Below, piece after piece: positions 1 through 17,819 of a stretch of 21,279 nt of DNA. Source of the stretch: an uncultured delta proteobacterium (GTDB lineage: Bacteria; Desulfobacterota; Syntrophia; Syntrophales; UBA2185); contig CAVSPA010000008.1 in the NCBI GenBank assembly GCA_963729715.1, positions 1 to 21,279 of the forward strand. Reading direction: 5' to 3'. Both the position numbers and the translations under genes were made by a program. Every line of letters starts with the position of its first letter. Positions within the stretch are counted from its first letter, which is position 1. A model generated the notes under the pieces. That model saw only the letters and a list, made by a program, of their open reading frames with translations. It made no database searches and was not told where the DNA came from.

Positions 1-153
1 GTAAGTGTTAACTCTCCATTTCTCACTTTTTTGTAGATTTTCAACCAGTAATTATCGCTCGATAACAGTTAGAACGCTTGTCATATCGGGCGGGGTTGCA
101 TCTTTCCTTAGCCGATGCTATAGAACCAAAAAATCTTATTTCAGGAGGAATTC

Positions 154-1404
154 ATGAAAGACGTTGTTATTGTATCGGCCTGTCGGACTGCCATCGGGTC
201 CTTCGGCGGCTCACTCAAGGAAGTTCACGCCTACAAAATCGCAAGCACCGCGATGAAAGAAGCCGTCAAGCGTGCGGGTATTGACCCCTCTGTCATAAAC
301 GATGTTCGCTTCGGCAGCTGCATGGAGCCCTACAACGCACTGAACATCGCCCGTGTTGCGTCACTCGATGCGGGAATCCCAGAAACCTCTACAGCTGTTA
401 CCATCAACCGCGTCTGCATCTCCGGCATGGAGGCCGTCATCTCTGGCATGGCCATGATCCAAGCGGGTTTGGTTGATGTAGTGTTGGCAGGTGGTGTGGA
501 GCACATGTCGGGTGTTGCTTACGGGGTACAGGGAGCACGCTGGGGCTGCCGATTGCAGAACCAAAGCTTCGATGACATGATGATAGAGGGCCTTTACTGC
601 GGATCACGCCTCCAGCCTGGTCTGGAGCAGGGCCCGGTAAAGGAAGGTCCCGTGATCGAAGCAATGAAGGGCAAGCCTTATATAATGGGCCATACAGCGG
701 AACTTGTTGCTCAGAAGTACAACATCTCCCGCGAAGAGATGGATGCTGTGGCCCTGCGGAGCCACAACAACGCTGAACGGGCAACGAAGGAAGGTGACTT
801 CAAGGAAGAGATCGTCCCAATCGAGATTCCCCAGAAGAAGGGAAAGCCTGCCGTCATCTTCGACAAGGATGAGCACTTCATGCCCGGGCTCACGATGGAC
901 AGGCTCGCTGCACTGCCGCCGGCCTTCATACCTAAAGGGGGAAAGGTCACGGCAGGGAACTCTTCGGGACTCAACGACGGGGCTGCCGCCATGGTCATCA
1001 TGTCGGCTGATAAGGCCAAAGAACTGGGACGTAAACCAATCGCGAGATTCAAGAATGCGGGTTATGGCGGATGCCACCCTTCAATTATGGGAATGAGTCC
1101 CGCTCCGGCCGTCCGCAGCCTGATAAGCCGATCCGGGCTCAAACTTGCCGATTTCGAGCTCATCGAACTCAATGAAGCCTTTGCCGCCCAGTATGCGGCC
1201 TGCGAGAAGGAACTGGGTCTGAATCGTAAGATTACGAACGTGAACGGCTCCGGCTGTGGCCTGGGACATCCTGTGGGAGCGACTGGCTGTCGTATTATGG
1301 TGACACTGATCCATGCCATGAAGAAGCGTGGCAATAAGCTGGGTCTCGCAGCCATCTGCGGCGGTGGCGGTGTGTCCATGGCAACGGCCTTGGAGATGAT
1401 CTGA
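154..1404 (+). CDS. Acetyl-CoA C-acyltransferase (thiolase), classical CxS/NEAF/GHP/CxG type
   Basis: RBS AGGAGG upstream. Motifs [16 protein letters not shown] (nucleophile Cys), [30 protein letters not shown] and AICGGGG. Confidence 0.95.
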
Positions 1405-1711
1405 GAGCATTTTGGTCCGACGTGTGAGAATCGAGGGGCAATATACCAGCCTCGACAATATGAATGGTAATCGCCAATCTATTTTCGCCATGCATGATGG
1501 CGATTTGGAGGTGGCAGCGAGATCGCTCGTGTTCTTCCTGAAATGTTGAAAATCTATTTCTGGCTGAATATACCTGATTTCAAGTCGCAATACTTAGTGC
1601 ATACGCCTGTTGCTTAAGCGTGCATCGCAAGATATCTCATGGGCAAATTGCCTTTTGTCGGTACGGCGACCGGTACTTGTCATCGGTCGCCTGTTCTATG
1701 CGAGAAGAAAA

Positions 1712-2185
1712 ATGGAGCATAAAAAAACTCTATTACTCATAATAGCTATACTGGTGTTTGCCTTGGGATGCACCATTTTAGACAAATCGCAAGTTGAAGC
1801 GGAAAAGTCGTCTAAAAAGACGTCCTTGGTTAATTTATCACAGTATGCAGGTCGACATTCCGAGAAAGGCATTAAATGCGCCGATTGCCATGGTAAAGCC
1901 ATACCCACACTCGACAGCGAAAGTACAGTCGAAAACCAACAGTGCCTTATATGCCATGGGCCCATGGAAAAGCTTGCTAAGAAATCGGAACCCAAGGATT
2001 TCCCTGACCGCAATCCTCACAAGTCCCATCTTGGCGATATCGCGTGCTCGGTCTGTCATCATGAACATTCAGCTTCAAGAGTCTACTGTCTCGACTGTCA
2101 CCCGAATTTCAAGATGAAGATCCCGGGAGGCGAGAGCTCAAATAATTCGGCAGAGATGAATCAAGGAACAATGCAATCGTTCTGA
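1712..2185 (+). CDS. Tetraheme cytochrome c (cytochrome c3 / flavocytochrome c heme subunit), predicted lipoprotein
   Basis: Four CxxCH motifs (CADCH, CLICH, CSVCH, CLDCH) plus extra His (GRH, NPHKSH, HHEH), spaced as in small tetraheme/FccA heme domains. Start reassigned to ATG 1712, giving signal peptide MEHKKTLLLIIAILVFALG|C with a lipobox. Confidence 0.9.
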   Translation: MEHKKTLLLIIAILVFALGCTILDKSQVEAEKSSKKTSLVNLSQYAGRHSEKGIKCADCHGKAIPTLDSESTVENQQCLICHGPMEKLAKKSEPKDFPDRNPHKSHLGDIACSVCHHEHSASRVYCLDCHPNFKMKIPGGESSNNSAEMNQGTMQSF

Positions 2186-2406
2186 TTGGTAATACTCGAT
2201 CAGGACATTTTGGGCATTTCTTATTTACGCTTATTATGTGCATCATTTTCGTCTGTGTGGGTGGAGCGGCACGGGCGACAGGGTCTGACGGAGTTCTTGA
2301 CGTAATGAGAACGCCGCATCGAGCATCGACTGCCACGGAACGCACGATATGCCTATCTTTGCTTTGGATGAAAAAGGCAGGGCGGAAAGAAGATATACTA
2401 AAATCA

Positions 2407-2435
2407 TTGACAGAATACTTTAACGAGCCTATATT
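2407..2435 (+). promoter_or_regulatory. Sigma70-type promoter for the flavoprotein gene
   Basis: TTGACA (2407-2412), 17-nt spacer, TATATT (2430-2435). Confidence 0.7.
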
Positions 2436-2492
2436 TTTCTATTGGACTAAACTTTCTCAACACACATGTATGCAGCAAGGAAGGAGACCATC

Positions 2493-4055
2493 ATGAGCAA
2501 CAATGATAATGAAAAAAATCGCCTCGAAGAAGCGGGAAGAAAATTGAAGCATGCGAAGATATCGCGAAGGACATTCATCGCGGGTGCCGGTGTCACTGCC
2601 GCCGCCGGAACTCTGGGAAGCGGTCTCTTCTTTCCACGTCCGCTGAGGGCGGTTGAGGTGCCCAAGAAGTGGGATCGAAAAGCTGATGTGGTAATCGTCG
2701 GCACCGGATACTCGGGACTGGCCGCTGCAATAGAGGCCCATGACGCCGGTGCAAAGGTGATCGTTATCGAAAAGAGCAAGGTCATCGGCGGCAACTCGGT
2801 CATCGCAAGCGGCGCCTATAATGCGGTTGACCCCGAGCGTCAGAAGAAACAGAACATTGAGGACTCCATCGACCTCCACTACAAACAGACCTTGGAGGGG
2901 GGAGATTTCAGGGCAGACCCGAAGAAGGTACGCTACATGGTGGAACATGCGCTGGAAGGCCTGCAGTGGCTCGAGAAGTTGGGTGTAGAATTCTCGCCCA
3001 CTGTCTATACCAACATCGGCGCACTCTGGCCTCGCAGCCACGACCCCGTGAAGAAAGGCCGCGGCGCCGCCATCGTCAAAGTCCTGAAGGCGCAGGTGGA
3101 CAAGCGTAACATACCGATCATTATGGAATGCCAACTTTCGGGCATTGTACGGGAGAAACCCCTGCAGGGTGACGTCTTGGGCATTGAAACTGAATACCGG
3201 AAGAAGAAAATGTATATCAAGGCTACAAAGGCGGTCATCCTCGCAACGGGTGGATTCGGAGCAGATGTGGCCATGCGCTCCAAATACGATCCCCGGTTAA
3301 CCGCCGACGTCCCTACGACAAACGTTCCCACCGCTACGGGAGAGGCCATCACTTACTCTGAGGACACGGGGGCCGATGTGGTCGGCATGGACTATATCCA
3401 GCTATTGGTCGCCTGCAACTATTACACGAAGCAGTATGGCTCGGTGGTGAACTTGGGGGTTGATTCTTGCGTCTTCGTGAATATCAAAGGCGAACGCTTT
3501 GTTGCGGAGAACGCGCGCCGCGACGTCATGGCCGAGGCGGTCCTCAAGCAGCCGAAGAAGGTACTCCTCTGGGTTGCCGATGACCGCTGCACAAAGCGCT
3601 TCAATCAGCAGGTGACGGAACAGATCATCAAGGACGGTCTCTCCTTCCGTGCCGATACTCTGGAAGGGATCGCGAAAATCCTGAAAGAGAAGTTCGACAC
3701 CCCGGAGAAGACTTTCCTAGAGACGGTGTCGAAATATAACGAAATGGTGATGAAGGGGAAGGACGAAACGTTTGGCAAAGAGACGGCAAATTTGAAGACA
3801 ATCGAAAAACCGCCTTTCTGGGCAAGTCCCACACAGGTGGGTGTCCACCACACCATGGGTGGTCTCAGGACGGAGGAAACTACGGGACAGGTCCTCGACC
3901 GCTATGGAAAGATCATACCGCGCCTGTATGCTGCCGGAGAAGTGATGGGCAGCGTCCACGGCACGAACCGGCTGGGTGGCAATGCCACGACGGAGTGTAT
4001 TGTCTTCGGCAGGACCGTCGGTATCAACGGAGCTAAAGAGAAGTTATTGGCATAA
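2493..4055 (+). CDS. Tat-exported flavocytochrome c flavin subunit (FccA/UrdA/methacrylate-reductase-like FAD oxidoreductase)
   Basis: RBS AAGGAG before ATG 2493. Twin-arginine SRRTFI followed by a hydrophobic stretch. FAD motif DVVIVGTGYSGLAAA, plus GGNS, ATGGF, VHHTMGG, LYAAGE and HGTNRLGGNA. Confidence 0.92.
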   Translation: MSNNDNEKNRLEEAGRKLKHAKISRRTFIAGAGVTAAAGTLGSGLFFPRPLRAVEVPKKWDRKADVVIVGTGYSGLAAAIEAHDAGAKVIVIEKSKVIGGNSVIASGAYNAVDPERQKKQNIEDSIDLHYKQTLEGGDFRADPKKVRYMVEHALEGLQWLEKLGVEFSPTVYTNIGALWPRSHDPVKKGRGAAIVKVLKAQVDKRNIPIIMECQLSGIVREKPLQGDVLGIETEYRKKKMYIKATKAVILATGGFGADVAMRSKYDPRLTADVPTTNVPTATGEAITYSEDTGADVVGMDYIQLLVACNYYTKQYGSVVNLGVDSCVFVNIKGERFVAENARRDVMAEAVLKQPKKVLLWVADDRCTKRFNQQVTEQIIKDGLSFRADTLEGIAKILKEKFDTPEKTFLETVSKYNEMVMKGKDETFGKETANLKTIEKPPFWASPTQVGVHHTMGGLRTEETTGQVLDRYGKIIPRLYAAGEVMGSVHGTNRLGGNATTECIVFGRTVGINGAKEKLLA

Positions 4056-4791
4056 AGTATTAAGGGTCGACGTGAAGCGTGAGCCCTTACCAAAGCTTGC
4101 CTTACTGATGCATGTTATTACTGTGGCAAATAAATATTATTTTAATTTTTTCTCTATGTAACGAAGAGTCAAGAAATAGATTTAATTGATGGCCATTTGC
4201 AATGATGTATCCGCTAAAGCTATGGAACGCTATGTTTCATGTGACCTGCCCTCGGAACATGTACCACATGTCCACGACTGAACAGTAGGTGGAGACAGTT
4301 ACCGGCTCATTTCATTTTTTCATTTCTCGATCTTGCGCAGTGCGGGTTGAAGGGTGCAAAGTTTTGACAGTTTATTCCCCTAGGATGCAGCCTACCGTTA
4401 CCTTCCTGTAAGCGTTGAATCTGCTCTTGTCGTGGTAATACAAGACTTCAATTGGAAATAAATAGAAACGGCTCTCATAAACAATAGGAACCCAAATGAC
4501 AGAATTCTAACTCTGAATGTGGCACATGTTCTGGAGCAGATTAATTTTAAGAATGCCGGATAAGGCTTCATTGTACGTCCACTTTCTCGGGGAGACATCC
4601 CCTGGCATGGCTAAAAAACAAGAATTCCAACATGAAATGTGGTAAGTAACACGGCATTCTATGCTTGGATCTGGATCAGGCGGGCAGTCGATGAACTTGC
4701 ACCGCAGACGGTTCTGAAGTGCGAGTAAAATAATCATGAAAGGAGATCAGTAGACGTGAATGAATCGAATGCTCTCAAAGAAAAGGAGACG

Positions 4792-6141
4792 ATGTTATCC
4801 CGGTTGACAGGAGGCCTGGCCAAGTGGGCCTTGCGTTGGATTCCCGACGCCATGATCTTTGCGCTGGCCTTAACGGTAATAGTATTCTTCGCCGCATGGG
4901 GGCTAACCAGTCATGGTCCCGTCCAGTTGGTCGACGACTGGGTGAAGGGCTTCTGGGTTTTGCTGACATTTGCCATGCAGATGAGTCTTTTAATGATCAC
5001 CGGCTTTACCGTAGCCGATTCCAAATCTGTAAAGCGAGGATTGATTAAACTGGTAGATCTCCCCAAAACAAAAACTCAGGTCATTGTGTTTTTCTCTTTG
5101 TTCATCGGTATTCTTTATTACCTCCACTGGGGTGTCGGTATGATGGCAGCCATTATCATGGGACGGGAGTTCGCTGTACGAAAACGCGGTTTGGGACTCC
5201 ACTATCCTTTCATCGCTGCACTGGCATTATGCTCCGGTCTTGTGGTGGCCAATGGTCCTTCCATGGCTGCTCAGCTTCTTATGGCCACACCGGGGCATTT
5301 CATGGAAAAGGTCGCCGGCATTATTCCGCTGAGTCAATCCACCTTTGATATCAAACTTTTAATCACTAACGGGTTATTGTATTTGTTAACACCCTTTGTT
5401 CTCGTGGCCATAGCACCGAGAAAAGAACATGCCGTGGAAATCGATGACGCTACCGCCGCCGCTTTTATTGCCCCACCTGAGAAACCGGCTGACAAGAAAA
5501 AGCTCACGCCTGCGGAGCGCTGGGATCGTTCCTGGGTCCTGCCGCTTTTGATTGCATTGGCCGGCCTGTTCTGGATTGGTAAGACTTTTTATGCCAAAGG
5601 CGCCGCCGCACTTGACCTGAACACCCTGAACTTTACTTTTCTGATTCTGGGTCTCTTGCTGCATGGTTCGACGAAGAGTTATATTGAATCCGTTCAGCGG
5701 GGTACCATGACCGTCTATGGTGTCATCATTCAGTTCCCGCTCTATGCCGGAATCTTTGGGATGATCAGTTTTTCGGGACTCGCTCAAATCATCGCCAATT
5801 TCTTCATCTCGATCTCAACACATGGAACTTACGCCTGGGTCATTTTCATCTACACGGGTATTGTGGATTTCTTTGTTCCCTCGGGAGGGTCTAAGTTCGT
5901 TGTTGAAGCCCCGTACATCTTGCCCGCGGCAAAGGCCCTCGGTGTCAGTGCCGGTGATACCATCAATGCTTACACAGCCGGCAGCCTCTGGGTCAACATG
6001 GTCCAGCCCTTCTGGGCGCTTCCCATTCTTGGGGCGTTTAAACTGAAGTTTCAGGATATCGCACCGTTCTGTTTGATCATAGCGACCTATTATGCAATTG
6101 TGGTGAGTATCTGTCTTCTCGCCTTGCCAAAACTATTCTGA
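4792..6141 (+). CDS. atoE: Short-chain fatty acid transporter, AtoE family
   Basis: Polytopic membrane protein with AtoE-like segments WIPDAMIFA, GFWVLLTFAMQM, IIQFPLYAGIFG, FFVPSGG and NMVQPFWALP. ATG 4792 follows AAGGAG; alternative GTG start at 4756. Confidence 0.88.
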   Translation: MLSRLTGGLAKWALRWIPDAMIFALALTVIVFFAAWGLTSHGPVQLVDDWVKGFWVLLTFAMQMSLLMITGFTVADSKSVKRGLIKLVDLPKTKTQVIVFFSLFIGILYYLHWGVGMMAAIIMGREFAVRKRGLGLHYPFIAALALCSGLVVANGPSMAAQLLMATPGHFMEKVAGIIPLSQSTFDIKLLITNGLLYLLTPFVLVAIAPRKEHAVEIDDATAAAFIAPPEKPADKKKLTPAERWDRSWVLPLLIALAGLFWIGKTFYAKGAAALDLNTLNFTFLILGLLLHGSTKSYIESVQRGTMTVYGVIIQFPLYAGIFGMISFSGLAQIIANFFISISTHGTYAWVIFIYTGIVDFFVPSGGSKFVVEAPYILPAAKALGVSAGDTINAYTAGSLWVNMVQPFWALPILGAFKLKFQDIAPFCLIIATYYAIVVSICLLALPKLF

Positions 6142-6169
6142 GGCGGTGCTGAGAAAATCGGTCAAAGAT

Positions 6170-6208
6170 AAAGAGGGTTGTCATTCATCACGAAGGTAAC
6201 CCTCTTTT
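6170..6208 (+). terminator. Probable intrinsic terminator after atoE
   Basis: AAAGAGGGTTG...TAACCCTCTTTT inverted repeat followed by T-rich sequence. Confidence 0.6.
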
Positions 6209-6645
6209 GATTTGTAAATTTCAAAACTGCCAAAAGAGAAAAGGGGGCCAGGAGATTTTTGATTTTCGCCATTACATTTCTGGAAACATAAAATCTTGGG
6301 ATTTTGACCGATAACACATCTGGATATCCGATACCGCAACGAACTTCCTCACCATCCACGGAGATCCAACCTGGGGGGGGTTGTTTCTGAGGCGATCAGA
6401 ATTCCTATCGAAGAGATTCCCAAAACATCAAATTTAGGCTTTTAACCCTTACAGATCATTCTGGTATTGTGACTGATTTTGCCGTTTCTTGGTGATACCA
6501 ATGATGCCGGATGGATATTGATAACTGGTTGTAATCCTTATATGAACAATGTCCGTTACGATAGATAGGGGTGGGTGAGTAGAACTTCCTTGTTATTCCA
6601 GTAAAGATATTTTTATATATTTGTTTCTTGATTTGAAGGTATCTT

Positions 6646-6825
6646 CATAGGCGGTTATCCCCATCAGTTGTACAACATCCTGCCCAACCCTTGTGATTAG
6701 AAAGTCGTGTGAAACGCTTTTACCTTGCTTAATTGAGGTTAGGATGTAGACGGGGAGTTATGTATTCTGAAGTAGGAGGTCGCATAGCGCCTCAATGGAA
6801 GAACACGATAATCTCCCCGCCTATG
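6646..6825 (-). ncRNA. Candidate bridge RNA / seekRNA of the IS1111-type element
   Basis: Two adjacent long hairpins (6747-6823 and 6676-6746), each with an internal loop and an apical stem carrying a bulged A followed by CUA. Several stem mismatches become G-U pairs only on the minus (transposase) strand. Confidence 0.7.
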
Positions 6826-6835
6826 TAACTATACC

Positions 6836-8085
6836 TTATGCAGCCTTTTTTATCACCTGCCCTTTCACAGATTCGTAATCGACAAGGTATTCCCCTTCAT
6901 CCCCTAGAATCGCATGTATTATCCTCAGGAGCTTCCTGGAAACTGCAACGAGGGCCATCATGCTTTTCATACCCCTGCCGGTGAGTCTTGTATAATACTC
7001 ATGCAGGATGCCATTCTTTCTTATTGCCTGCATTGCCGCATAGTAGAGTATCTTCCCCTTTTAGATATCCTCCTTCGCCCTTTCCATTTTCCCGAACTTA
7101 CCTCGTACAGGTCAAGGCCGGCAAGCTTCATGATCTCTGGCTGTGTCCTGAACTTCTTAAAATCGCCAACCTCTCCTATGAGACCTGCCACTGTCACTAT
7201 TCCCAACCCTTTTATGGAAAGCAACTTTGAACTATAGGGTATCCTCCCAAGGGTTATCTCCATCTCTCCCTCTATTTCCGCAATGAGTCTATTTACCAGC
7301 TCCAATTGAATGAGGATATGCCTTATATCCATGGACAAACCTGCTGCACCCTCTCTGATACCAATGGTATCCTTTGCAAGATTGATCAGCATCTCCGCAT
7401 GGCTCTCCCTAAATTTACCCCTGCTCCTCTTCCTCATCTCTTCGCCGAGAGCTTCCTTTTTTAAACCGCCTATGATTTCAGGTGTGAGATATTTATTGAG
7501 TATATAGAGAGCTGTCTTGACCTGTATATCCTTTATCACCGTTCTGAATTCGGGAAACAAGAGAAAGACCAGTTGCTGCAACTGGTTGAAAAGGGCCGTA
7601 CGTTCCCCGACATGCCTCTCCCTCGAGTTGTTCAACCTCCTCAGGTAGGCCGCATCACCTTCCGGGATCACAACGCTCAGCGAGTGCCCTAATAGTATAA
7701 TATCCGCCAGTACCCGGGGATCCTTGTCATCTGTCTTCAGCGGAGAGTTGTCGTTTATCTCTTTTACCCTCTTTGTGTGCATGGGATTAACCTGGACTAC
7801 CGTCACGGGCTTCTTTGACAGGTAATGGCCGATGGGTTCACCATAGGGACCTGTTGATTCGTATCCTACGATCACCTCATTGCATCTGAACCTGTTCTTA
7901 TTCACAACAATCATGCTCCAGAGCCTGTCAAGCCCCGCCCTCGTATTGTCAAATCTGAAAGGCTTTATATCCCTTCCGTCTGTGGTGGTACAGTACCCTC
8001 TGTTCATCTCCAAACCGATATCTATTGTCACGATCAGCGTATCTTCCTTTATCCTTCCTATTTTCCCTGTGCATGCTTTCTTCAT
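6836..8085 (-). pseudogene. IS110-family DEDD transposase/recombinase, frameshifted near 7051
   Basis: TIDIG, GYESTG, KTDDKD (DEDD) and AGL..SSG (catalytic Ser region) lie in ORF 7021-8085. The C-terminus KILYYAAMQAIRKNG...ALVAVSRKLLRIIHA continues in another frame to 6836. Confidence 0.9.
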
Positions 8086-8491: not shown

Positions 8492-8671
8492 TCCACCGCG
8501 AAAAAGCAATGCCTTATCAATATCAATACAATGAAGGGGCCTGGCCAGCAGCGGGAGCCTTATTAATATCAAGAGTAACTAGAGTGGCGTTCCGGTTTCC
8601 TTTCGAAAAGGCAGCATGCAAAACGGCCGCCCGCGAGGAAGAGCGCATTGGGATGGTAATTGAGGTCTGAT

Positions 8672-10117
8672 ATGGAAGAAAGAAGTAAAGATGATCGGAT
8701 GAAATCGCTGCTCAAGGAATCAAGAAGAAAGACCCTGCTCTATGAGAAGATCCTGGAAATCTCTGCGGACGGTTTTCTCATTGTCGACTCCAAAGGACAT
8801 ATTGTCGATATCAACAAGGCGTACTGCGCCTTCCTCGGCCGCAGGAAGAAAGATATCGTGGGAAAGTATGTCATGGATGTGATCAAGAATTCGAAATTGC
8901 CGGAAATAATGATCACGGGAGAGCAAGAGGTGAATGTGCTTCACCGTCTTGCCGAGGGCCAGACACCGGGCAATGAGAAATACGTTGCCGTCTCGAGAGC
9001 GGCGGTGAAGGACGGGGACGAGGTTATCGGAGCCGTGGGGCAGATATATTTTCGTAAAGAGACCATGGAGCTTGCCGGGAAACTCCGGAATATGGACTCG
9101 GAACTCAATTACTATAAGAGCGAACTCGAAAAGGTAGCGGGAGACAGATACAGTTTCGAGAATGTCATCGGCCAGAACAAGCAATTCCTCGAAGTCAAGA
9201 AGGTTGCCGAAAAAGCGGCGAAGAATGATTTTGCGGTTCTCATTTTCGGCGACACGGGCACCGGAGAAGAGGTATTTGCCAATGCCATCCATTATGCGAG
9301 TGCAAGGAGGAACAGGCCTTTAATCCGCGTCAATTGCGGCGCCATCCCTTCCGAACTGCTCGAGTCGGAGCTTTTCGGTTACGAGGAGGGGGCTTTTACC
9401 GGAGCGAAGAAGGGCGGTAAAAAAGGAAAATTCGAATTGGCGCACAGAGGCACGATCTTTCTAGATGAGATCGGAGATATGCCCCTTAATATGCAGGCCA
9501 AGCTGCTGCGCGTTTTGCAGGAGAAGGAATTCGAGAAGGTAGGGGGGAATAAGGCTATCTCCGCCGACGTTCGCGTGATTGCGGCAACCAATCAGGACCT
9601 GGAAAGCTTTGGCAGAAAGAAACTGCGGGACGACCTGTATTATCGTCTGAATGTCATACAATTGAAGATACCTACGCTGAAAGAGAGGACCGACGACGTC
9701 CGCCTGATTGCTGACAGTTTTCTTGACAGGCTCAATGGTGAGAAGGGAAACAGCATTATCATCTCACCGGAAGTTTATGCGGCCCTCGTACGCTATTCGT
9801 GGCCGGGGAATGTGCGGGAATTGCGGAATGTAATCGAAAGGGCCTATTGCCTTGTGGAAGGCAACATCATACTCCCGTCTCATCTGCCCGTTCATATTGT
9901 GACTAACACAAAGATTCCTGCAGCTGCCGCAAGAAAGAAAACGCTCGACAAAATCCTTGCAGAGATTGAGCGGGAAATCATCATCAATGCGCTCGCTAAG
10001 ACCAATCATAACTATAAAGTAACGGCCAAAGAGCTTGGCATTCACCGGAGTACTTTTTATAAGAAGATAGACAAGCTGAACATCAAGAGAAATTTCAGTC
10101 CTGCCATCAACATTTAG
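8672..10117 (+). CDS. Sigma54-dependent enhancer-binding protein (PAS + AAA+ + Fis HTH) with degenerate Walker A
   Basis: N-terminal PAS-like region. ESELFGYEEGAFTGA, FLDEIG, QAKLLRVLQE, DLYYRLNV, WPGNVRELRN and HTH TAKELGIHRSTFYKK. Walker A reads GDTGTGEE. GAGGT precedes ATG 8672. Confidence 0.93.
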   Translation: MEERSKDDRMKSLLKESRRKTLLYEKILEISADGFLIVDSKGHIVDINKAYCAFLGRRKKDIVGKYVMDVIKNSKLPEIMITGEQEVNVLHRLAEGQTPGNEKYVAVSRAAVKDGDEVIGAVGQIYFRKETMELAGKLRNMDSELNYYKSELEKVAGDRYSFENVIGQNKQFLEVKKVAEKAAKNDFAVLIFGDTGTGEEVFANAIHYASARRNRPLIRVNCGAIPSELLESELFGYEEGAFTGAKKGGKKGKFELAHRGTIFLDEIGDMPLNMQAKLLRVLQEKEFEKVGGNKAISADVRVIAATNQDLESFGRKKLRDDLYYRLNVIQLKIPTLKERTDDVRLIADSFLDRLNGEKGNSIIISPEVYAALVRYSWPGNVRELRNVIERAYCLVEGNIILPSHLPVHIVTNTKIPAAAARKKTLDKILAEIEREIIINALAKTNHNYKVTAKELGIHRSTFYKKIDKLNIKRNFSPAINI

Positions 10118-10140
10118 AAAGGCGAGGAATCAAACTTCTG

Positions 10141-10176
10141 TGTCTTGAAATTAAGACATGTCTTAAAATTGAGACA
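10141..10176. promoter_or_regulatory. Tandem pair of 18-bp palindromic activator boxes (TGTCT-N8-AGACA)
   Basis: TGTCTTGAAATTAAGACA immediately followed by TGTCTTAAAATTGAGACA. Confidence 0.75.
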
Positions 10177-10357
10177 TAAATTGCATGCATCGAAAATACC
10201 CGCCTCTTTTTCTTCAAATGTCCAACCTCGCACATAGGATATTTTTTACCTGTCATATCACATAGAACAGTCTTCCACTTTCCCACTTTGTGATGCCCAT
10301 GCATATTATGCTTGCGGAGATGGCATGCGTACCTGTGTGAACGCCGCGCAGTCAAAG

Positions 10358-10375
10358 TGTCTACAAAAGAAGACA
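10358..10375. promoter_or_regulatory. Third TGTCT-N8-AGACA box (putative upstream activator sequence)
   Basis: TGTCTACAAAAGAAGACA, about 200 bp upstream of the sigma54 promoter. Confidence 0.72.
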
Positions 10376-10566
10376 TAGACCGCCCCTAAGACCCCTTTCT
10401 GAGCGATTTCTTCCATCCGATAGCTTGAATATCCGCTTATTCAGGAATACTGAACGGAGAGTGCCCGCCCAAACGTCCACCCTGATAAACCCTGCAACAT
10501 CGTGTTCTTAAAGCGCCTCTTTTCTCAGACCACCTCTTTCTCAAACGAAACGACACGTAACTTTTT

Positions 10567-10582
10567 CTGGCACGCTAATTGC
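10567..10582 (+). promoter_or_regulatory. Sigma54 (-24/-12) promoter
   Basis: CTGGCACGCTAATTGC matches consensus YTGGCACG-N4-TTGC and lies downstream of a bEBP gene. Confidence 0.9.
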
Positions 10583-10707
10583 CGACAACCGGGGCAGAAC
10601 GGTGTGAGAAATTTCATGGGAGGCGCTGTTTCGCGAAAGCAGGATGCGCTTATCTGGAAAGAAGAACCATAATCAGGATCAGCCGAAAAATCACAGGAGG
10701 TTATTTT

Positions 10708-12045
10708 ATGGGTCTTGCAGAAGAATACAAAAAAAGATTGGCTACCCCTGAACAAGCCGTCAGGGTTGTGAAGTCGGGTGACTGGGTGGAATACGGTCAG
10801 TTTGCAACGCAGAACGTGCTCCTCGACAAGGCCTTGGCTGCTCGTAAAGACGAACTCAAGGATGTCAAAGTTCGTTCGACCACGCGCGTTGGGGCCATGC
10901 CGGAAGTCGTCAGGGTAGATCCGACAGCGGAGCACTTCAGATACAACAGCATGCATTACATGGGAGTCGACCGCCGTTCCCAGGAACTCGGCAATTGCTG
11001 GTATATCCCGATTCTTTATCACGAGGTACCGAGTTGGTATCGAAATTACATGGATCTGGATGTCGCCATGATCGCGACAACCACAATGGATGAGCACGGC
11101 TATTTCAATTTCGGTCCTTCCTGCTCTTTTTCCAGGGCGATTTGCGATAAGGCGAAGAAGATCGTTCTCGAAGTGAACCCGAATATCCCGCGCTGTCTCG
11201 GCGGGCGCGAGGAGTCCGTTCATATCTCCGAGGTCGACCATATCGTCGAAGCCGACTGGCCGTTCCCAGAGTTCCCATTTCCCGATCCCACCGAGCTGGA
11301 CAAAAAGATTGCAGCATTGATCGTCAACGAAATGGAGGACGGTGCCTGCCTTCAGATAGGACAGGGTGGTATGCCTATAGCCGTGGGATGGATGCTTGCC
11401 GAATCCGGCCTGCAGGACCTCGGCATTCACAGCGAAATGTTCTGCGATTGCATGCTGGGAATGATTGAATCAGGCAAAGTGACGAATGCCAAGAAAAGCA
11501 TAGATCAGCATAAGATCGTATACACATTTTCCCTCGGTGTAAAAAGGACTTATGATTTTCTCCACAACAATCCGATGTGCGCCATTTACCCGGTAAGTTA
11601 CACAAATGATCCCTGTATCGTTCGGCAGAATGACAGGGTCGTCTCCATTAATAATTGCATAGAGGTGGATCTCTTCGGCCAGGTGAGTTCAGAATCATCC
11701 GGGCCGAAACAGATAGCCGGAACGGGTGGCCAGGTCGATTTCGCCCTCGGCGCTTACCACTCAAAAGGAGGGAAGTCCTTTATCTGCTTTGGTTCGACAT
11801 ATAACAAGAAGGGTGCGCCTGCATCGCGCGTCGTTCCGATGCTTAAACCCGGTACGATCGTTACTACACCGCGTACCATTGTATCCTATCTTGTCACTGA
11901 ATATGGCGTCATCCATATGAAGGGGAAATCAACCTGGCAGCGCGCCGAGGCCATCATTTCCATAGCACATCCGGATTTCCGCGATGATCTTATAAAGGAA
12001 GCCGAGAAAATGGGGCTCTGGCGAAGGAGCAATAAGAAACAGTAA
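10708..12045 (+). CDS. Family I CoA-transferase (butyryl-CoA:acetate / 4-hydroxybutyrate CoA-transferase-like; acetyl-CoA hydrolase/transferase family)
   Basis: RBS AGGAGG before ATG 10708. [42 protein letters not shown] (catalytic Glu), [13 protein letters not shown] and IAHPDFR. Confidence 0.92.
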
Positions 12046-12106
12046 ATGTGCAAAATTTGCACCATGCAACTCTTTTTTTATTTATCATTTAGAGGGGGGT
12101 TATAGG

Positions 12107-13291
12107 ATGGGCGTAATTTTTGGAGATGTTAAGGTCTTGGATTTTACCAATAATCTGGCGGGACCGGTTGCAACACTGATGCTGGCCACTTTCGGGGCAG
12201 AGGTCATCAAGATCGAACGGCCCGGAAAGGGTGATGATAGCCGCGGCTTCGGCTTGAGAATCGACGGGGTAAGCGTCTTTTATATGGCTCACAACCGGGG
12301 CAAAAAATCGCTCGCCTTAGATACGAAGAAACCCGAGGCGGTAGCCATCCTCCGCAAACTTGTATCCAAGGTAGATGTCGTCGTGGAGAGCTTCCGACCC
12401 GGAGTAATCGATAAAATGGGCTTTGGGTACGAGGAGCTGAAGAAAATTAATCCGAGCATTATCATGTGCTCTGTTTCAGCATTCGGGCAGACAGGTCCAT
12501 ACAGCCAGTGGCCCGGCTACGACATCATAGCACAGGGGGTCAGCGGGATCATGTCTGTGACAGGTGCTGGAGACGGGCCTCCCACGAAGGTGGGCCCTTC
12601 CATCGGCGACTACGTTACGGGTTTCAATGCCTTCGGGGCAATTGCGGCGGCTCTGTATTATCGCGCCAAATCAGGCAAAGGCCAGTACATAGACACCTGC
12701 CTTGTGGATTGTCTGATCGCTGCCAATGATTACGCTGATTACGCATTCAATGGGTTCGAGGTAAAGCGCACCGGAAATCACCACGGCCTCTTCGCTCCCT
12801 ACGGCGTGTACAATGGAAACGGCGGAAATATCATCATAGGGATATTGAATCAGAAACTCTGGAATACCTTGTGTGTCATCATGAACCATCCGGAGATGAT
12901 GGACAATCCGAAGTACGATGATCCGGGCAAGCGTAGGCAGGTCCTCCCGGAAATTATCGGGGCGATAGAACCCTGGCTGAAGAGTTTCCCCGATATCGAT
13001 GAGCCGTTCAGGATTCTGAAAGAAAAAGGCATCCCCTGCACCAAGGTTTACACCCTCCCGGATCTCCTGACCGATCCTCATATTCTCAGCCGCGAAATGG
13101 TTACGGACATGGATGTGCCCTATCTCTCATCAGGCAAAATGAAAACAAAAGGAATCCAGATCAAGTTTGCTGAAAATCCGGGAGTTCTCGGAAGTCCTCC
13201 CCAGGTGGGGGAACATCAGAAGGAGATTCTAAACATGATAGGTTACGGCGATAAGGAAATTCAGGCTTTGAAAGAAAAAGGAGTATTCTAA
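12107..13291 (+). CDS. Family III CoA-transferase (CaiB/BaiF)
   Basis: VLDF..LAGP, GAEVIKIERPGKGDDSR, NRGKKS, ESFRPG, AFGQTGPY, GYD and IGD (catalytic Asp position). Confidence 0.94.
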   Translation: MGVIFGDVKVLDFTNNLAGPVATLMLATFGAEVIKIERPGKGDDSRGFGLRIDGVSVFYMAHNRGKKSLALDTKKPEAVAILRKLVSKVDVVVESFRPGVIDKMGFGYEELKKINPSIIMCSVSAFGQTGPYSQWPGYDIIAQGVSGIMSVTGAGDGPPTKVGPSIGDYVTGFNAFGAIAAALYYRAKSGKGQYIDTCLVDCLIAANDYADYAFNGFEVKRTGNHHGLFAPYGVYNGNGGNIIIGILNQKLWNTLCVIMNHPEMMDNPKYDDPGKRRQVLPEIIGAIEPWLKSFPDIDEPFRILKEKGIPCTKVYTLPDLLTDPHILSREMVTDMDVPYLSSGKMKTKGIQIKFAENPGVLGSPPQVGEHQKEILNMIGYGDKEIQALKEKGVF

Positions 13292-13306
13292 AAGGAGGAG
13301 GAAGTT

Positions 13307-14719
13307 ATGGAAGCTATGCAAGTATTGGGTATCGTTATAAGCTTGTTTCTGCTGATGTTCATGGCGTATCGTGGATTTTCCGTGATCTTTTTTGCGCCTG
13401 TATTTGCTCTCATGGCCGCAGTCTTACAGGGGTTGCCGATCATGCCCTCGTACACGGAGCTCTTTATGGGCAAGGCTGTGGGTTTCATAAAATCTTTTTT
13501 CCCTGTGTTTATGCTCGGAGCGGTTTTTGGAAAGGTAATGGAGGATACTCTGCTGGCCAAAGGGATAGCTCATGCCATCATTACCAAATTAGGTCCGAGA
13601 CACGCCATATTGTCCGTAGTCTTAACGGGCGCCATTTTAACGTATGGCGGCGTAAATGTCTTTATAGTTATTTTCGCCGTCTATGGCCTTGCGGCATCAG
13701 TTTTTAAGGAAGCGAATATTCCCAAAAGATTGTTGCCCGGCGCATGTACTCTCGGCTTTTTTACGTTTACCATGGACGCGTTTCCAGGAACACCACAGAT
13801 CCAGAACATTATTCCTACGACCTTTTATGGAACGACGACCTTCGCCGCACCCATTGCCGGCTTGGTAGGCGGCACACTGATTTTTATCTGCGGTATGCTT
13901 TACCTCGAATGGCGAAGAAGAAAGGCGGCTGAAAAAGGAGAAGGTTACGGCGATCATACTTTGAATGAACCAATCGCCAGTGCTGATGAGAGAACATTGC
14001 CCAAATGGTATGTAGCTGTGTTGCCGTTGGTGTTTGTTCTCATTCTGAACTACGTTATGTCACGTGTGGTCACATGGGATCCAGGTGTGCTCGAGCAATT
14101 CACCGGCATGAAGCTTCCCTTGTTTACCCCTGCCGTAAAAAATGTTGTCGGAATCTGGGCGTTGATTATTGCCGTTACGGGCGGTATCATCCTGGCAGTG
14201 GCTCTGGGATATAAGAACTTGCCTAAGAAAGACGGCCTGCAGAAAGCTATCAATGTCGGCGCAATCGGATCACTTTTAGCTATCATGAATACGGCCTCGG
14301 AAGTCGGCTACGGCAATGTTATCGCCGCACTGCCCGGCTTCAAAACGATAGCCAGTGGCGTGATGGGCATACACATAGGTGGAACACCGCTTGTATCGGA
14401 AGCAATCGGTGTAACAACACTTGCCGGGATCACAGGTTCGGCATCCGGGGGCATGGCGATTGCACTCTCCCTCATGGCCAAAGACTGGCTCGCCTGGGCC
14501 AACTCTATAGGACTATCACCGGAAATACTCCACCGTGTTGCCTCGATGGCCTCGGGCGGGATGGACAGTTTGCCCCATAACGGCGCTGTCATTACACTGC
14601 TGGCGGTCTGTGGATTGACACACAGGCAGTCCTATGTGGATATCGGGGCGATCACCTTAATCAAGACGTCCATGGTCTTTGTGGTTATCGCTCTTTATCT
14701 TATCACGGGCATTTACTGA
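13307..14719 (+). CDS. GntP-family permease (YxjC-like carboxylate transporter)
   Basis: Highly hydrophobic. LTYGGVNVF, PGTPQIQN, AGITGSASGG and DSLPHNGAV. Confidence 0.85.
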   Translation: MEAMQVLGIVISLFLLMFMAYRGFSVIFFAPVFALMAAVLQGLPIMPSYTELFMGKAVGFIKSFFPVFMLGAVFGKVMEDTLLAKGIAHAIITKLGPRHAILSVVLTGAILTYGGVNVFIVIFAVYGLAASVFKEANIPKRLLPGACTLGFFTFTMDAFPGTPQIQNIIPTTFYGTTTFAAPIAGLVGGTLIFICGMLYLEWRRRKAAEKGEGYGDHTLNEPIASADERTLPKWYVAVLPLVFVLILNYVMSRVVTWDPGVLEQFTGMKLPLFTPAVKNVVGIWALIIAVTGGIILAVALGYKNLPKKDGLQKAINVGAIGSLLAIMNTASEVGYGNVIAALPGFKTIASGVMGIHIGGTPLVSEAIGVTTLAGITGSASGGMAIALSLMAKDWLAWANSIGLSPEILHRVASMASGGMDSLPHNGAVITLLAVCGLTHRQSYVDIGAITLIKTSMVFVVIALYLITGIY

Positions 14720-14861
14720 GATCCTGGAATAGGTGCAGTTAGGCCTTGTTGATCCTAGGGTGTTGCATCTTCATCGATGCCACCCCGGGATTACTATTTA
14801 GAAGTATTAAAACAAAAGTACTTCTTATTATCAGGAGTCTTTTCATTGGAGGAAGCCGATC

Positions 14862-15074
14862 ATGGAAGAGGTCAAATTTAAAGTCAAGAATATGGAGTGT
14901 AAATCCTGTGCGAGTGCGATTGAGAAGAAATTGAAATCTATGGCTGGAGTCAAAGCCATTGACATCGACCTTCGGAATAAGATAGTCAAAATACAGCATG
15001 ACAATCCCAATCTGTGCCAGGATGTTCTCACCTGCGCCGTGGAAGACATGGGCTACGAGGTGCAGGCAATATAG
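14862..15074 (+). CDS. Heavy-metal-associated (HMA) domain protein, CopZ-like chaperone
   Basis: 70 aa with MECKSC (MxCxxC) and C-terminal GY; RBS GGAGG. Confidence 0.85.
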   Translation: MEEVKFKVKNMECKSCASAIEKKLKSMAGVKAIDIDLRNKIVKIQHDNPNLCQDVLTCAVEDMGYEVQAI

Positions 15075-15148
15075 ATTGGTCTGAAGCGCGTTAGAGAACT
15101 GCACTCGCCGAGCCAGCACACTATGCATGTCAGAACAGGAACGAATAG

Positions 15149-15514
15149 GTGAAGAAGAAGTTTGGCCCGACAGCTATAGCTATGCTCCTGCTCCTGGGGC
15201 TACGGTTCTTCGGCCAGATCGAATCGCTCATAACTTCCTTTAATCCCGGCCCGCTTGTCATGTTCTGTATCTATTTGGCGGCGATTATCGGCATATACAA
15301 AAGGAAGCCATGGGGCGATATTGTTTGCGCCGTCATCGGCGTTACGGATATTGCAACTACGCTCATTTACACGGAGGGGGCAAGCAGGGTCGGCGCGGTC
15401 GTCGTCGACTCGTTGATGATCTATCTCGCCTTCGAGGATTACAAAAATATTAAGGCGAGCAAGAAATCCGGATACGTAAATGCCGGAGAAAAACCATCCA
15501 GTGATCAGCAATAA
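15149..15514 (+). CDS. Small hypothetical membrane protein (3-4 TM)
   Basis: 121-aa co-oriented ORF with GTG start and several hydrophobic stretches. Confidence 0.65.
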   Translation: MKKKFGPTAIAMLLLLGLRFFGQIESLITSFNPGPLVMFCIYLAAIIGIYKRKPWGDIVCAVIGVTDIATTLIYTEGASRVGAVVVDSLMIYLAFEDYKNIKASKKSGYVNAGEKPSSDQQ

Positions 15515-15599
15515 CCGTGAGTGACGGCTTCTATCGATCCGGGAGGGGGGTGCGTCTCAGTACTGTTCGATTTTTCAGCGGCGAAGGAGGATGGATAAG

Positions 15600-16442
15600 A
15601 TGGCTTTGAATCTGGATGCAATCGGCAAGAAGATAGGACCGATAACCAGGACCTATACTTGGCGGGACGTTATAATTTATGCCCTTGGCATTGGATCGGG
15701 GTTTGACGAGCTCAACTACGTCTATGAAAAAGACCTGAAAGTGATCCCCACCTTTTCGATTGCATCGATTGTGCAATTTTTTTTCGAGGCCTCTCACCTG
15801 GCAAACGTGAACCTGTCCGGTGTCCTTCATGGTGGACAGGAACTGATATTCCACCGCCCCATCCCCATATCGGGGACCCTGACCACCGAGGGCAGGATCA
15901 CCCGCTTTTATGACAAAAAGGAAAAGGGCGCCATCATTATCGGTGAAAGCAACACCTATCATTCCAACGGGGAGAAGCTCTTCACCGCAATTTTCAATAT
16001 CTTCAGCCGTCTCGACGGAGGCTTTGGCGGCGAGGACGCCCCCTTGCGGACAGCATCGATTCCGGACAGAAATGCTGATATGCTTGTGGAAGCCCTGCCT
16101 TCTCCTGATCAGCCTCTACTTTACCGCCTTTCCGGCGATGTCTTTGCGCTTCATGTCGATCCGGAGTTTGCCAGAAAAGCGGGCTTCGAAAAGCCCATCA
16201 TGCACGGCCTGTGCACGCTCGGTTATGCCTGCCGTGCCCTCATGGCTAACCTAGTTCCGGGAGTGCCGGAAATGGTCAGGCGATTAAATTGCCGTTTTAC
16301 ACGACCCCTCTATCCCGGCGATCAGATTGAAACCCTCATCTGGAAGACGGAGGAGGGGAAGGCTGTCTGGAGGACGAGAAATACTAAGACCGGGGAGACA
16401 GTCATCGACGGCGGCGAATTTGAGTACGGAGATATTCCCTAA
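15600..16442 (+). CDS. MaoC-family (R)-specific enoyl-CoA hydratase 2 (double hot-dog)
   Basis: YALGIG, PTF, LHGGQEL, hydratase-2 motif YRLSGDVFALHVDPEFA and PIMHGLCTLG. ATG 15600 is 9 nt from AAGGAGG. Confidence 0.9.
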   Translation: MALNLDAIGKKIGPITRTYTWRDVIIYALGIGSGFDELNYVYEKDLKVIPTFSIASIVQFFFEASHLANVNLSGVLHGGQELIFHRPIPISGTLTTEGRITRFYDKKEKGAIIIGESNTYHSNGEKLFTAIFNIFSRLDGGFGGEDAPLRTASIPDRNADMLVEALPSPDQPLLYRLSGDVFALHVDPEFARKAGFEKPIMHGLCTLGYACRALMANLVPGVPEMVRRLNCRFTRPLYPGDQIETLIWKTEEGKAVWRTRNTKTGETVIDGGEFEYGDIP

Positions 16443-16630
16443 AGCTGACAAGGAGGATCGGTCGAAGGAAGAAGATGCCGAAATAAGCAAGAATCATGAA
16501 TGCTCGGTATAAGTCAAGGAGGCAGAGGGTGACTGCAATGCGATTATAGAGGGCGGCTAAGTAAATTACCGTCGCCTATGAATGCGGCAACATCCAACAC
16601 TCTTAACGAATTCCAATTATGGAGGTAGAA

Positions 16631-17806: not shown

Positions 17807-17819
17807 AGGAGATCATTCT

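Follow-up and report, generated by a model that had tools for sequence, protein, structure and literature searches.

A predicted split flavocytochrome c with its own substrate loop, carried on a small mobile module in a Syntrophales genome

Periplasmic flavocytochromes allow anaerobes to respire organic acids, and the enzyme of Wolinella succinogenes has methacrylate reductase activity. The Wolinella enzyme, FccA, consists of a 515-residue flavoprotein with a twin-arginine translocation (Tat) motif and a 146-residue tetrahaem subunit, and excerpts of PMC4427408 tabulate split pairs of this kind in Geobacter, Anaeromyxobacter, Desulfatibacillum, Denitrovibrio, Shewanella and Wolinella. Mrd of Geobacter sulfurreducens AM-1, described in the same excerpts, has 526 residues, the Tat motif RRDFLK at position 25 and close homologues that are 62-65% identical to it. 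ArdAB of Shewanella woodyi pairs a Tat-exported flavoprotein with a Sec-exported tetrahaem cytochrome, both of which are required for activity (bioRxiv 10.1101/2024.02.11.579808, in excerpt), and the available part of a 2026 preprint describes four split pairs in S. oneidensis alone, including SO_1413/1414, SO_3056/3058 and SO_3300/3301. Here we analyse a stretch of 21,279 nucleotides (the window) from an uncultured delta proteobacterium of the Syntrophales (assembly GCA_963729715.1, contig CAVSPA010000008.1, forward strand), in which a gene for a small tetrahaem cytochrome (1712-2185, + strand) is followed by a gene for a flavoprotein (2466-4055, + strand). A sequence-only reading of this DNA had presented the split architecture as notable; the split form is long known from Wolinella FccAB, Mrd/Mcc, ArdAB and the Shewanella pairs, and is not new.

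The pair is an enzyme of a known kind, in a distinct, conserved and uncharacterised specificity clade and on a small mobile module. It is probably a split periplasmic flavocytochrome c, predicted to act as a one-way cytochrome c:2-enoate reductase whose acceptor is not fumarate and probably not urocanate or methacrylate. The cytochrome gene extends from an ATG at 1712 to a stop codon at 2185 and encodes 157 amino acids with four CXXCH motifs, at residues 56, 78, 112 and 126 (nucleotides 1877, 1943, 2045 and 2087). Its product matches PF14537 (Cytochrom_c3_2) with an E value of 5e-21 (75.4 bits, cut-off 25). All 17 of its matches in the PDB at E <= 0.01 are Shewanella flavocytochromes c3, aligned in their N-terminal tetrahaem domain (residues about 9-98); the protein is homologous to the haem domain of FccA. 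His103, His106 and His119 are conserved and are candidate distal ligands, and members of the cytochrome family come in two sizes, about 135 residues (tetrahaem) and about 240 residues (heptahaem). The signal peptide ends in VFALGC with a lipobox-like cysteine, Cys20 (nucleotide 1769), which agrees with the lipid anchor proposed in the sequence-only reading. This cysteine is found in only two of 25 aligned homologues, the window protein and its 95% relative, so the anchor is a prediction for the window copy and no family trait.

The flavoprotein, 529 amino acids long as an open reading frame (ORF; 2466..4055, + strand), is an FAD-binding protein with a Tat signal. Its true start is probably Met10 (ATG at 2493, giving 520 amino acids), because an AAGGAGA ribosome-binding site lies 7 nucleotides 5' of that ATG and relatives align from residue 10. 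It matches PF00890 (FAD_binding_2) with an E value of 2.8e-70 and TIGR01813 (flavo_cyto_c) with 395.6 bits (cut-off 285.45), and no NCBIfam equivalog model reaches its cut-off with it. The twin-arginine signal (KISRRTFIAGAG..., 2556..2618, + strand) is recognised by PF10518 (TAT_signal) over residues 31-51 (23.9 bits, cut-off 22.7), and the RR motif is present in 105 of the 120 best relatives. The dinucleotide-binding motif for FAD, DVVIVGTGYSGLAAAIEAHDAGAKVIVIEK (residues 74-103, 2685..2774, + strand), was identified in the translation, and its G79, G81 and G84 are invariant in the alignment of relatives (A1). The best PDB matches are UrdA (E 2e-84) and FccA (E 7.7e-71). An AlphaFold2 model built with 47 sequences (mean predicted local distance difference test, pLDDT, 88.3; predicted template modelling score 0.84) has as its top two Foldseek matches UrdA 6t86 (E 1.1e-50) and FccA 1qjd (E 4.1e-47). 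Template modelling scores of 0.75-0.86 to 6t86 and 0.72-0.77 to 1qjd indicate that the two-domain FAD and clamp fold is present in the model. Domain, residues, predicted fold and cytochrome partner place the flavoprotein in the flavocytochrome c / soluble FAD_binding_2 2-enoate reductase family, with the activity itself being a prediction. The assignment of the two genes as a split flavocytochrome c in the sequence-only reading is borne out by the haem-domain matches of the one and the TIGR01813 score of the other. The "flavocytochrome c" in the excerpted text of PMC5946492 is a sulfide dehydrogenase and a different enzyme from the family considered here.

Active-site equivalences were taken from HMMER alignments to FccA and UrdA, and the roles of the residues from excerpts of PMC7921117 and of the Vibrio harveyi acrylate reductase (ARD) preprint. 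By alignment, R352 in R351-R352-D353 (RRD, 3516..3524, + strand) corresponds to the proton-donor arginine, FccA R402 and UrdA R411. H461 of H461-H462 in GVHHTMGG (3846..3851, + strand) corresponds to the carboxylate ligand FccA His504 and UrdA His520, and R502 in the R502...G505 segment of NRLGGN (3969..3980, + strand) to FccA Arg544 and UrdA Arg560, which form the salt bridge to the substrate carboxylate; G505 aligns with UrdA G563. Of the 120 best relatives, 115 retain R352, 119 retain H461 and all retain R502 and G505. The retention of these three residues, and the loss of the segment that bears His365, Thr377, Glu378 and Arg381 in FccA, had been proposed from the letters; the alignments to FccA and UrdA agree with those residue statements and their coordinates, which are right. 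In the flavoprotein His365 is replaced by L314, Thr377 by N329 and Glu378 by L330, and Arg381 falls in a gap next to G331. In the HMMER alignment, the FccA ligands of the C1 carboxylate (His365 and Thr377) and the Glu378-Arg381 proton relay are gone.

These replacements bear directly on whether the enzyme could be a fumarate reductase that relies on different residues, the conserved K/R322 for instance, to hold its substrate. A basic residue stands at position 322 in 120 of 120 relatives, and some relatives are labelled fumarate reductase flavoprotein. With all four of the FccA residues replaced, and with representatives that carry the QxHPT...TRD pattern lying on a distant branch, we regard this as extremely unlikely. 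A reverse role would make the protein a periplasmic dehydrogenase of a saturated acid whose electrons reach the sulfite-reducing chain by way of the cytochrome. The weaker family matches do include dehydrogenases of succinate, tricarballylate and 3-ketosteroids and the host is a Dsr-type respirer, but the Arg/His/Arg set of the active site is of the reductase type and the closest characterised relatives work in the reducing direction only. No oxidation of propionate was seen with ArdAB, and its authors speak of molecular diodes (bioRxiv 10.1101/2024.02.11.579808, in excerpt). A dehydrogenase role appears highly improbable.

The comparison with UrdA concerns the part of the pocket that would hold the rest of the substrate. 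UrdA Glu177, Phe243, Phe245, Tyr373, Arg390 and Phe391 correspond to A117, T182, I184, L314, G331 and V332 of the flavoprotein. UrdA Asp388 aligns to N329, the sole UrdA-specific position with a permitted counterpart: in UrdA this residue binds the imidazole, and gut UrdAs may have Asn or Gln there (PMC7921117, in excerpt). The equivalence of N329 and Asp388 is uncertain because the AlphaFold2 model has strands where UrdA has a helix. A urocanate or substituted-urocanate reductase would fit this asparagine, the rank of UrdA as best solved match, and the "urocanate reductase" label that the Joint Genome Institute attaches to many members of the group; the 2026 preprint, in the part available, also proposes thiourocanate and methyl-urocanate as substrates of Shewanella split flavocytochromes. 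The labels are automatic, however, and the replacement of Tyr373, Glu177 and Arg390 by Leu314, Ala117 and Gly331, and of the Phe lid by Thr182, Ile184 and Val332, speaks against such a substrate. The flavoprotein also has no match to the FMN_bind domain in Pfam, and no histidine or trimethylammonia-lyase gene was found among the neighbours scanned. We consider a urocanate-type acceptor very unlikely.

In place of the FccA His365...Thr377-Glu378 segment the flavoprotein carries the loop IQLLVACNYYTKQYGSVVNLG (residues 311-331, 3396..3458, + strand), which lies within the 3387-3524 given in the sequence-only reading. Most family members have a shorter Q-x-x-P-x...P-x-T segment, relative to which this loop has an insertion. 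Its consensus is QLL[VI]ACN[YF][YF]T[KR]. Among the 120 best relatives N318, T321 and a K or R at 322 are kept in all 120, C317 in 119, N329 in 117 and L314 in 114. The strict motif Q[LIM]L[VIL]ACN[YFW][YFW]T[KR] is present in 98 of these 120; of the remaining 22, 17 have a closely similar sequence and the fallback pattern left five unresolved. The strict motif is absent from all 269 other flavocytochromes examined, which comprise 149 representatives and 120 hits of the Mrd-like clade. Since the loop is conserved throughout the group, the replacement is not a chance feature of the window protein.

These 120 relatives are the best of 4019 proteins at E <= 0.001, found among 7996 candidates scored in a word-indexed protein search. 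They are 56-98% identical to the flavoprotein and form one tight orthogroup, whose named members belong to Syntrophales, Syntrophorhabdaceae, Desulfovibrio and Burkholderiaceae and have generic or automatic names only; named genome records add Acidobacteriota and Desulfovibrionaceae to the hosts. In an exhaustive scan of 1.84 billion cluster representatives, the representative of the orthogroup came first with 681 bits at 60% identity, ahead of a cluster with 443 bits at 49%, so that enzymes outside the orthogroup are at most about 50% identical to the flavoprotein in that scan. One sub-branch of the orthogroup (P0113, P0115, P0119 and P0120, 56-60% identical) keeps the CN[YF]FT[KR]K core and has E-T/L-A/S-F-P in place of QLLVA. 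At the position of RRD in the window protein, P0113 has RPA and P0120 has KQE, so that the catalytic pair is lost in this sub-branch; R352 is replaced in five of the 120 relatives. Its members may catalyse other chemistry or none.

A phylogeny with the known reductases had been suggested as a check on the sequence-only reading. The FastTree phylogeny comprises 92 rows, including 17 of the orthogroup and 8 of Mrd-like proteins. Representatives were limited to the first 60 with lengths of 430 to 700 amino acids, plus five that were added back by hand, and the distant paralogues L019b and L015b were left out. The orthogroup forms one branch (support 100) and the Mrd-like group another (support 100), and the FccA-type haem-bearing representatives, among them P0246 (match to 1qjd at E 6.5e-160), lie elsewhere; representatives with the QxHPT...TRD pattern occupy a branch distant from the orthogroup. 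P0165 was considered as a representative of UrdA and rejected as no closer to UrdA than to FccA, and the tree is for that reason without a UrdA row; ArdA was compared by its text description. Taken together, the alignments, the loop and the tree support the view that the flavoprotein groups with no characterised reductase among those compared (FccA and UrdA directly, Mrd via a proxy identified by its fingerprint, ArdA via the published residue description). The proposal of an uncharacterised non-fumarate enoate reductase is upheld by this separate orthogroup and its private loop, within the same limits for ArdA and Mrd.

The two genes lie in a discrete module. In blastn, positions 1520-4191 of the window (2.7 kb) are 95.6% identical to positions 4185-6856 of L005, a genome record from the Syntrophales, and beyond these limits the two sequences are dissimilar. 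At the 5' edge near-identity begins at about 1531, and pairwise alignment with L005 shows that the leader upstream of the cytochrome gene (1531..1711, + strand) is common to both and forms the 5' part of the module. The 3' tail (4056..4191, + strand) ends where similarity to L005 stops, and short repeats follow. Upstream of the module L005 has a gene for a tyrosine recombinase; downstream of it come a PNPOx-like fragment and a gene for a formamidase. No direct or inverted repeats flanking the module were found at seed 12. Repeats at 4288-4540 and 6586-6884 recur at 75-92% identity on many contigs of the L005 genome (28 matches listed) and border the module and the IS110 element.

Metagenome contigs, compared over positions 1-6200 of the window in four runs labelled peat, soil or freshwater sediment, point the same way. 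In one peat run the thiolase region (1-1542), the flavoprotein gene (2289-4271) and the atoE region (4644-6200) lie on three contigs with unlike sequence beyond those edges, and in a second peat run a contig spans 1662-3537 with unlike sequence before it. Peat contigs pass into unlike sequence after 4271 and after 4329. Two metagenome runs contain near-identical short pieces, one of which (1440-1851) bridges the thiolase-module junction. A search of sequencing runs listed 20 matching runs from 11 studies, none with half of the words; RNA runs were absent from the listing, a blank that says nothing about expression. The cytochrome-flavoprotein pair moves as a unit of 2.7 kb that is not tied to the genes now beside it.

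On these data, the view that the enzyme reduces a short aliphatic enoate (crotonate, acrylate, methacrylate or tiglate) in one pathway with the neighbouring thiolase and the AtoE-type transporter has to be weighed. The thiolase gene, the pair and atoE are adjacent on the same strand, and the 1440-1851 piece does bridge the junction with the thiolase. Within the pocket, the Leu at the His365 site recalls the Met that fills this position in the V. harveyi acrylate reductase (according to excerpts of its preprint), and the bulky Tyr-rich loop could shrink the cavity. Against a common pathway stand the module edges at about 1531 and 4191, where the 96% relative has tyrosine recombinase and formamidase genes instead, and a 700-nucleotide gap with dispersed repeats between the flavoprotein gene and atoE. 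The L005 genome has its 93% copy of the atoE region on a different contig, next to a gene for an acyl-CoA dehydrogenase, and the window thiolase as query found no close copy in that genome, only matches of 70-83 bases at 77% identity. No short-chain fatty acid transporter or thiolase was seen among 81 neighbouring ORFs scanned at loci L005-L016 and L019; these were the nearest or longest of 158 listed in L005-L017 and L019, with L017 and short antisense ORFs left out. A periplasmic reductase, moreover, needs no import of its substrate. Because the pair is a discrete module that occurs in other surroundings in the 96% relative and in the peat contigs, the AtoE/thiolase neighbourhood is best taken as accidental. 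The link to these genes, from which a short aliphatic acceptor had been deduced, should be dropped, and a shared pathway is quite unlikely.

Mobility also raises the idea that the cassette is idle cargo, recently moved and not expressed or matured in this host. The contig has transposase genes and the distribution of orthologues is sporadic: they were found in two of 400 other genomes sampled from the phylum, in none of 12 same-order genomes listed and not in the one genome of the same genus. Both reading frames are nevertheless intact with all catalytic residues kept, the two genes remain intact at 95.6% DNA identity between two genomes, and the host has two cytochrome c assembly genes and so is able to mature the cytochrome. 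That the cassette is inert is, like the reverse role, highly improbable.

At three Syntrophales-type loci the orthologues have genes for nitrogen and amide metabolism as neighbours: a formamidase/acetamidase gene in L005 (7030-9104) and, in L007 and L008 (3798-8836), an ammonium transporter (Amt) gene each, together with a P-II gene in L007 and a CN-hydrolase gene in L008. A periplasmic amidase that makes the enoate was considered and dropped, because the L005 formamidase and the L008 CN-hydrolase have no signal peptide.

Further observations bear, for and against, on the reading of the pair as a split enoate reductase. Fifteen orthologue loci were compared (the window, L005-L016, L028 and L029, the last two with flanks of 1.5 kb only). 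A cytochrome gene with at least four CXXCH motifs lies in the examined flank of six: the window and L005 (four motifs each), L028 (six), L009 and L012 (seven each) and L029 (14). The examined flanks of the other nine have no multihaem cytochrome gene. A 3.5-kb peat contig (run X2) about 97% identical to the flavoprotein gene matches the window only from 2289 and has 237 unlike bases before it; this relative has the flavoprotein without the cytochrome gene of the window upstream. Given these nine loci and the peat contig, pairing with a cytochrome is not obligatory. Co-transcription of the window pair is unproven as well, since the 281-nucleotide spacer between the two ORFs (2186..2492, + strand, if counted to the ATG at 2493) has its own promoter-like site, a sigma-70-like match at 2407-2435 (11 of 12 positions), besides the AAGGAGA before 2493.

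A predicted structure of the complex, another check suggested earlier, supports the pairing weakly. The window pair scored 0.55 (runs 0.48, 0.64 and 0.55) against 0.08 for the best control. Of the calibration set, 116 of 157 solved complexes and 2 of 215 mismatched pairs attained the mark, and the passes with scores at or below 0.60 comprised only 18 solved complexes and both passing mismatches. Contacts agree between the runs to at least 82% and the partner pLDDT is at least 78, but the pass may reflect memory, because the fused homologue FccA has been solved. By alignment, the loop residues are candidates for lining the pocket, and Asn329 at the Asp388 site, where gut UrdAs may have Asn or Gln, would be compatible with a urocanate-like acceptor. 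The genome bin has 6.48% contamination, and the contig is only 21 kb long with two transposase genes. In the literature on flavocytochrome c, methacrylate and urocanate reductases, Syntrophus, Smithella and Syntrophorhabdus, no paper was found that characterises any member of the orthogroup or gives an activity for one. The donor of the electrons, finally, is a guess: DsrMKJOP or a periplasmic dehydrogenase might feed the tetrahaem cytochrome.

The genes that prompt this guess are in the host genome. The window is the entire contig C8 of a genome bin of 3.76 Mb in 19 contigs, rated 100% complete. The contig has a GC content of 0.493, and its tetranucleotide profile correlates with that of the bin at r 0.96 (mean of random 21-kb pieces 0.93), which fits the bin. 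Only three ORFs in the genome have two or more CXXCH motifs: the window cytochrome, a 133-residue trihaem protein and a 658-residue protein with two motifs. The trihaem protein is DsrJ and lies in a DsrMKJOP operon, all five subunits of which score above their NCBIfam equivalog cut-offs. DsrA (556 bits, cut-off 393) and a DsrB-like gene are a few kilobases away; this region of contig C7, at about 489500-500900 (locus L027 and beyond), contains the full DsrMKJOP set, a second DsrK-like protein, and DsrA with the DsrB-like gene. The encoded DsrMKJOP and DsrA/DsrB-like set suggests a host that respires sulfite or sulfate by the Dsr route and has very few c-type cytochromes. The bin yielded no gene of the NapC/NirT family. 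In L006, a Syntrophorhabdaceae record, 435 bases separate the orthologue from a set of DsrMKJOP-like genes. This linkage, the lack of NapC/NirT and the position of DsrJ as the only other clear c-type cytochrome point weakly to DsrJ/DsrMKJOP, or to a periplasmic dehydrogenase, as the electron source.

By analogy with FccA, UrdA and ArdAB, the split reductase would work as follows. The cytochrome would be exported by Sec, receive four haems and perhaps be anchored by a lipid, and the flavoprotein would be exported folded with its FAD through Tat. Electrons would pass from the haems to the FAD. The substrate carboxylate would be held by R502 and H461, hydride from FAD N5 would go to the beta carbon of the alpha,beta-unsaturated carboxylate, and R352 would deliver a proton to the alpha carbon. 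The loop at 311-332, A117/Y118 and T182/I184/W188 would select the rest of the substrate molecule. The cassette might serve as an extra organic electron sink for a cytochrome-poor sulfite or sulfate reducer.

The substrate is not nameable from sequence. The Leu at the His365 position and the Tyr-rich insert hint at a small hydrophobic substituent, the replacement of the UrdA lid by Thr, Ile and Val at a larger one, and the invariant N318, T321, K/R322 and N329 at a polar or anionic group. The peat, soil and freshwater-sediment habitats fit many candidate acids. Small or medium aliphatic 2-enoates can be put forward tentatively, and aryl- or heteroaryl-acrylates such as hydroxycinnamates just as tentatively; dicarboxylates other than fumarate seem rather unlikely, and so do other classes. 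A broader proposal, which we hold to be doubtful, is that the QLLxACNYYTK orthogroup is a new specificity class of respiratory enoate reductase whose acceptor is widely present in peat, wet soil and sediment, such as a plant-derived acid of the hydroxycinnamate type or some enoate so far not recognised as an electron acceptor. The two-gene cassette would then give cytochrome-poor Dsr-type Syntrophales, Acidobacteriota and Desulfovibrionaceae an electron sink that is fed via DsrJ/DsrMKJOP and not via a quinol dehydrogenase of the NapC/CymA type.

The remaining features of the window, assigned from the ORF list and profile matches, lie outside the module, except for one. This is a hairpin with a 10-base-pair stem (GGCGACCGGT...ATCGGTCGCC, 1665-1691), 20 nucleotides 5' of the cytochrome start codon, which is terminator-like in the hairpin listing, is kept in L005 except for two base changes and may be a regulatory or translational element. 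On the + strand the thiolase gene (154-1404) precedes the pair, and the gene for the AtoE-type short-chain fatty acid transporter (4756-6141) follows it. An IS110 transposase gene on the - strand (7021-8085) is followed, all on the + strand, by genes for a PAS/sigma-54 activator (8660-10117), a butyryl-CoA:acetate-type CoA-transferase (10705-12045; 570.8 bits, below the equivalog cut-off of 674.8), a family III CoA-transferase (12107-13291), a GntP-like permease (13307-14719), a MaoC-type (double hot-dog) hydratase (15591-16442), an SCP-x-type thiolase with a DUF35/BbsA-like partner (16619-18236) and an IS3-type transposase (18417-19247). The cluster from 8660 to 18236 looks like a pathway for some organic acid, with acid activation and beta-oxidation-like steps, and the AtoE gene and the thiolase gene at 154-1404 may go with this cluster rather than with the flavocytochrome. 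Sigma-54-type matches number 14 in the window, which is within chance (shuffles gave a mean of 9.65, and 11 of 100 reached 14). The best of them (10568-10583, one mismatch) lies after the activator gene and before the CoA-transferase gene. Control of the cytochrome-flavoprotein pair by the activator was rejected, as the site at 1512-1527 has two mismatches and lies outside the part conserved in L005.

Each newly assigned specificity in this family (urocanate, acrylate, cinnamates, itaconate) has tied a metabolite pool to microbial energy metabolism. The orthogroup is widespread in metagenomes, with near-identical DNA in peat, soil and freshwater-sediment runs, and with a private loop conserved so sharply it offers a clean target in the search for substrates. 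Because the host has no NapC/NirT and DsrJ is its one other clear c-type cytochrome, the orthogroup would also reveal how reductases of this kind receive electrons in sulfite reducers that are poor in cytochromes. The advance is incremental: uncharacterised clades of this sort are numerous, and chemistry of a known type is to be expected.

Among the described systems, Shewanella FccA/Fcc3 (PDB 1qjd, 1d4c and 1qo8) shares with the window pair the tetrahaem and FAD_binding_2/clamp modules, the predicted fold, the carboxylate clamp, the proton-donor Arg and the periplasmic location. It differs in that the modules here are encoded by separate genes and the flavoprotein carries a Tat signal, in the replacement of His365/Thr377/Glu378/Arg381 by Leu/Asn/Leu/gap, in an identity of about 35% and in its distant branch. 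S. oneidensis UrdA (PDB 6t85-6t88), the best solved match, has in common with the flavoprotein the equivalents of Arg411, His520 and Arg560; Asn aligns at the Asp388 site, an uncertain equivalence. In the window protein a cytochrome partner takes the place of the FMN_bind domain, and Tyr373, Glu177, Arg390 and the Phe243/Phe245/Phe391 lid are not kept.

Mrd/Mcc, as excerpts of PMC4427408 describe it, is likewise a Tat flavoprotein of about 526 residues with a separate multihaem cytochrome, has mobile DNA at its flanks and has spread by transfer. Over 104 residues the window cytochrome shares 59% identity with the tetrahaem C-terminal part of an Mcc-like cytochrome with seven haems. Unlike Mcc, which is heptahaem and encoded downstream of its flavoprotein, it is tetrahaem and encoded upstream. 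The published lengths and Tat motifs of Mrd and its homologues occur in none of the 120 best relatives of the flavoprotein. P0366, reached by a search with the Mrd-like flavoprotein of L012, has the Mrd fingerprint (526 amino acids, RRDFLK at position 25) and served as proxy for Mrd of strain AM-1; its 90% cluster holds "flavocytochrome c [Geobacter sp. FeAm09]". The flavoprotein is 38% identical to P0366, which has a loop of the QLYPY...PET type, and the two are on separate, fully supported branches. Both kinds of enzyme occur together in L012, an Acidobacteriota record, where an orthogroup member (5992-7545) lies near a divergently oriented gene for an Mrd-like flavoprotein (4148-5710) that is 36% identical to the window flavoprotein. 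A heptahaem cytochrome (3272-4033) comes after the Mrd-like flavoprotein, just as mcc comes after mrd. The tetrahaem half of this cytochrome is the one that is 59% identical to the window cytochrome.

ArdAB resembles the window pair in that the C4-carboxylate residues are kept and the C1-carboxylate residues replaced. The excerpted text of its preprint, by which alone ArdA is set apart here, gives Gly and Tyr at the His and Thr positions, against Leu and Asn in the flavoprotein. That text links ArdAB to the periplasmic dimethylsulfoniopropionate lyase DddY; general profile matches suggest no lyase among the window neighbours, and no search aimed at DddY was made. The gut enzymes Cir, Crd and Ird, V. 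harveyi ARD and V. ruber Crd are known here from partial text, and the excerpted V. ruber work indicates that these active-site positions alone do not fix specificity. None of the 405 proteins collected has the published Tat motif of a Wolinella or S. oneidensis split flavocytochrome. By their descriptions in the excerpted sources, Wolinella FccA and the S. oneidensis pairs have the same split architecture as the pair in the window.

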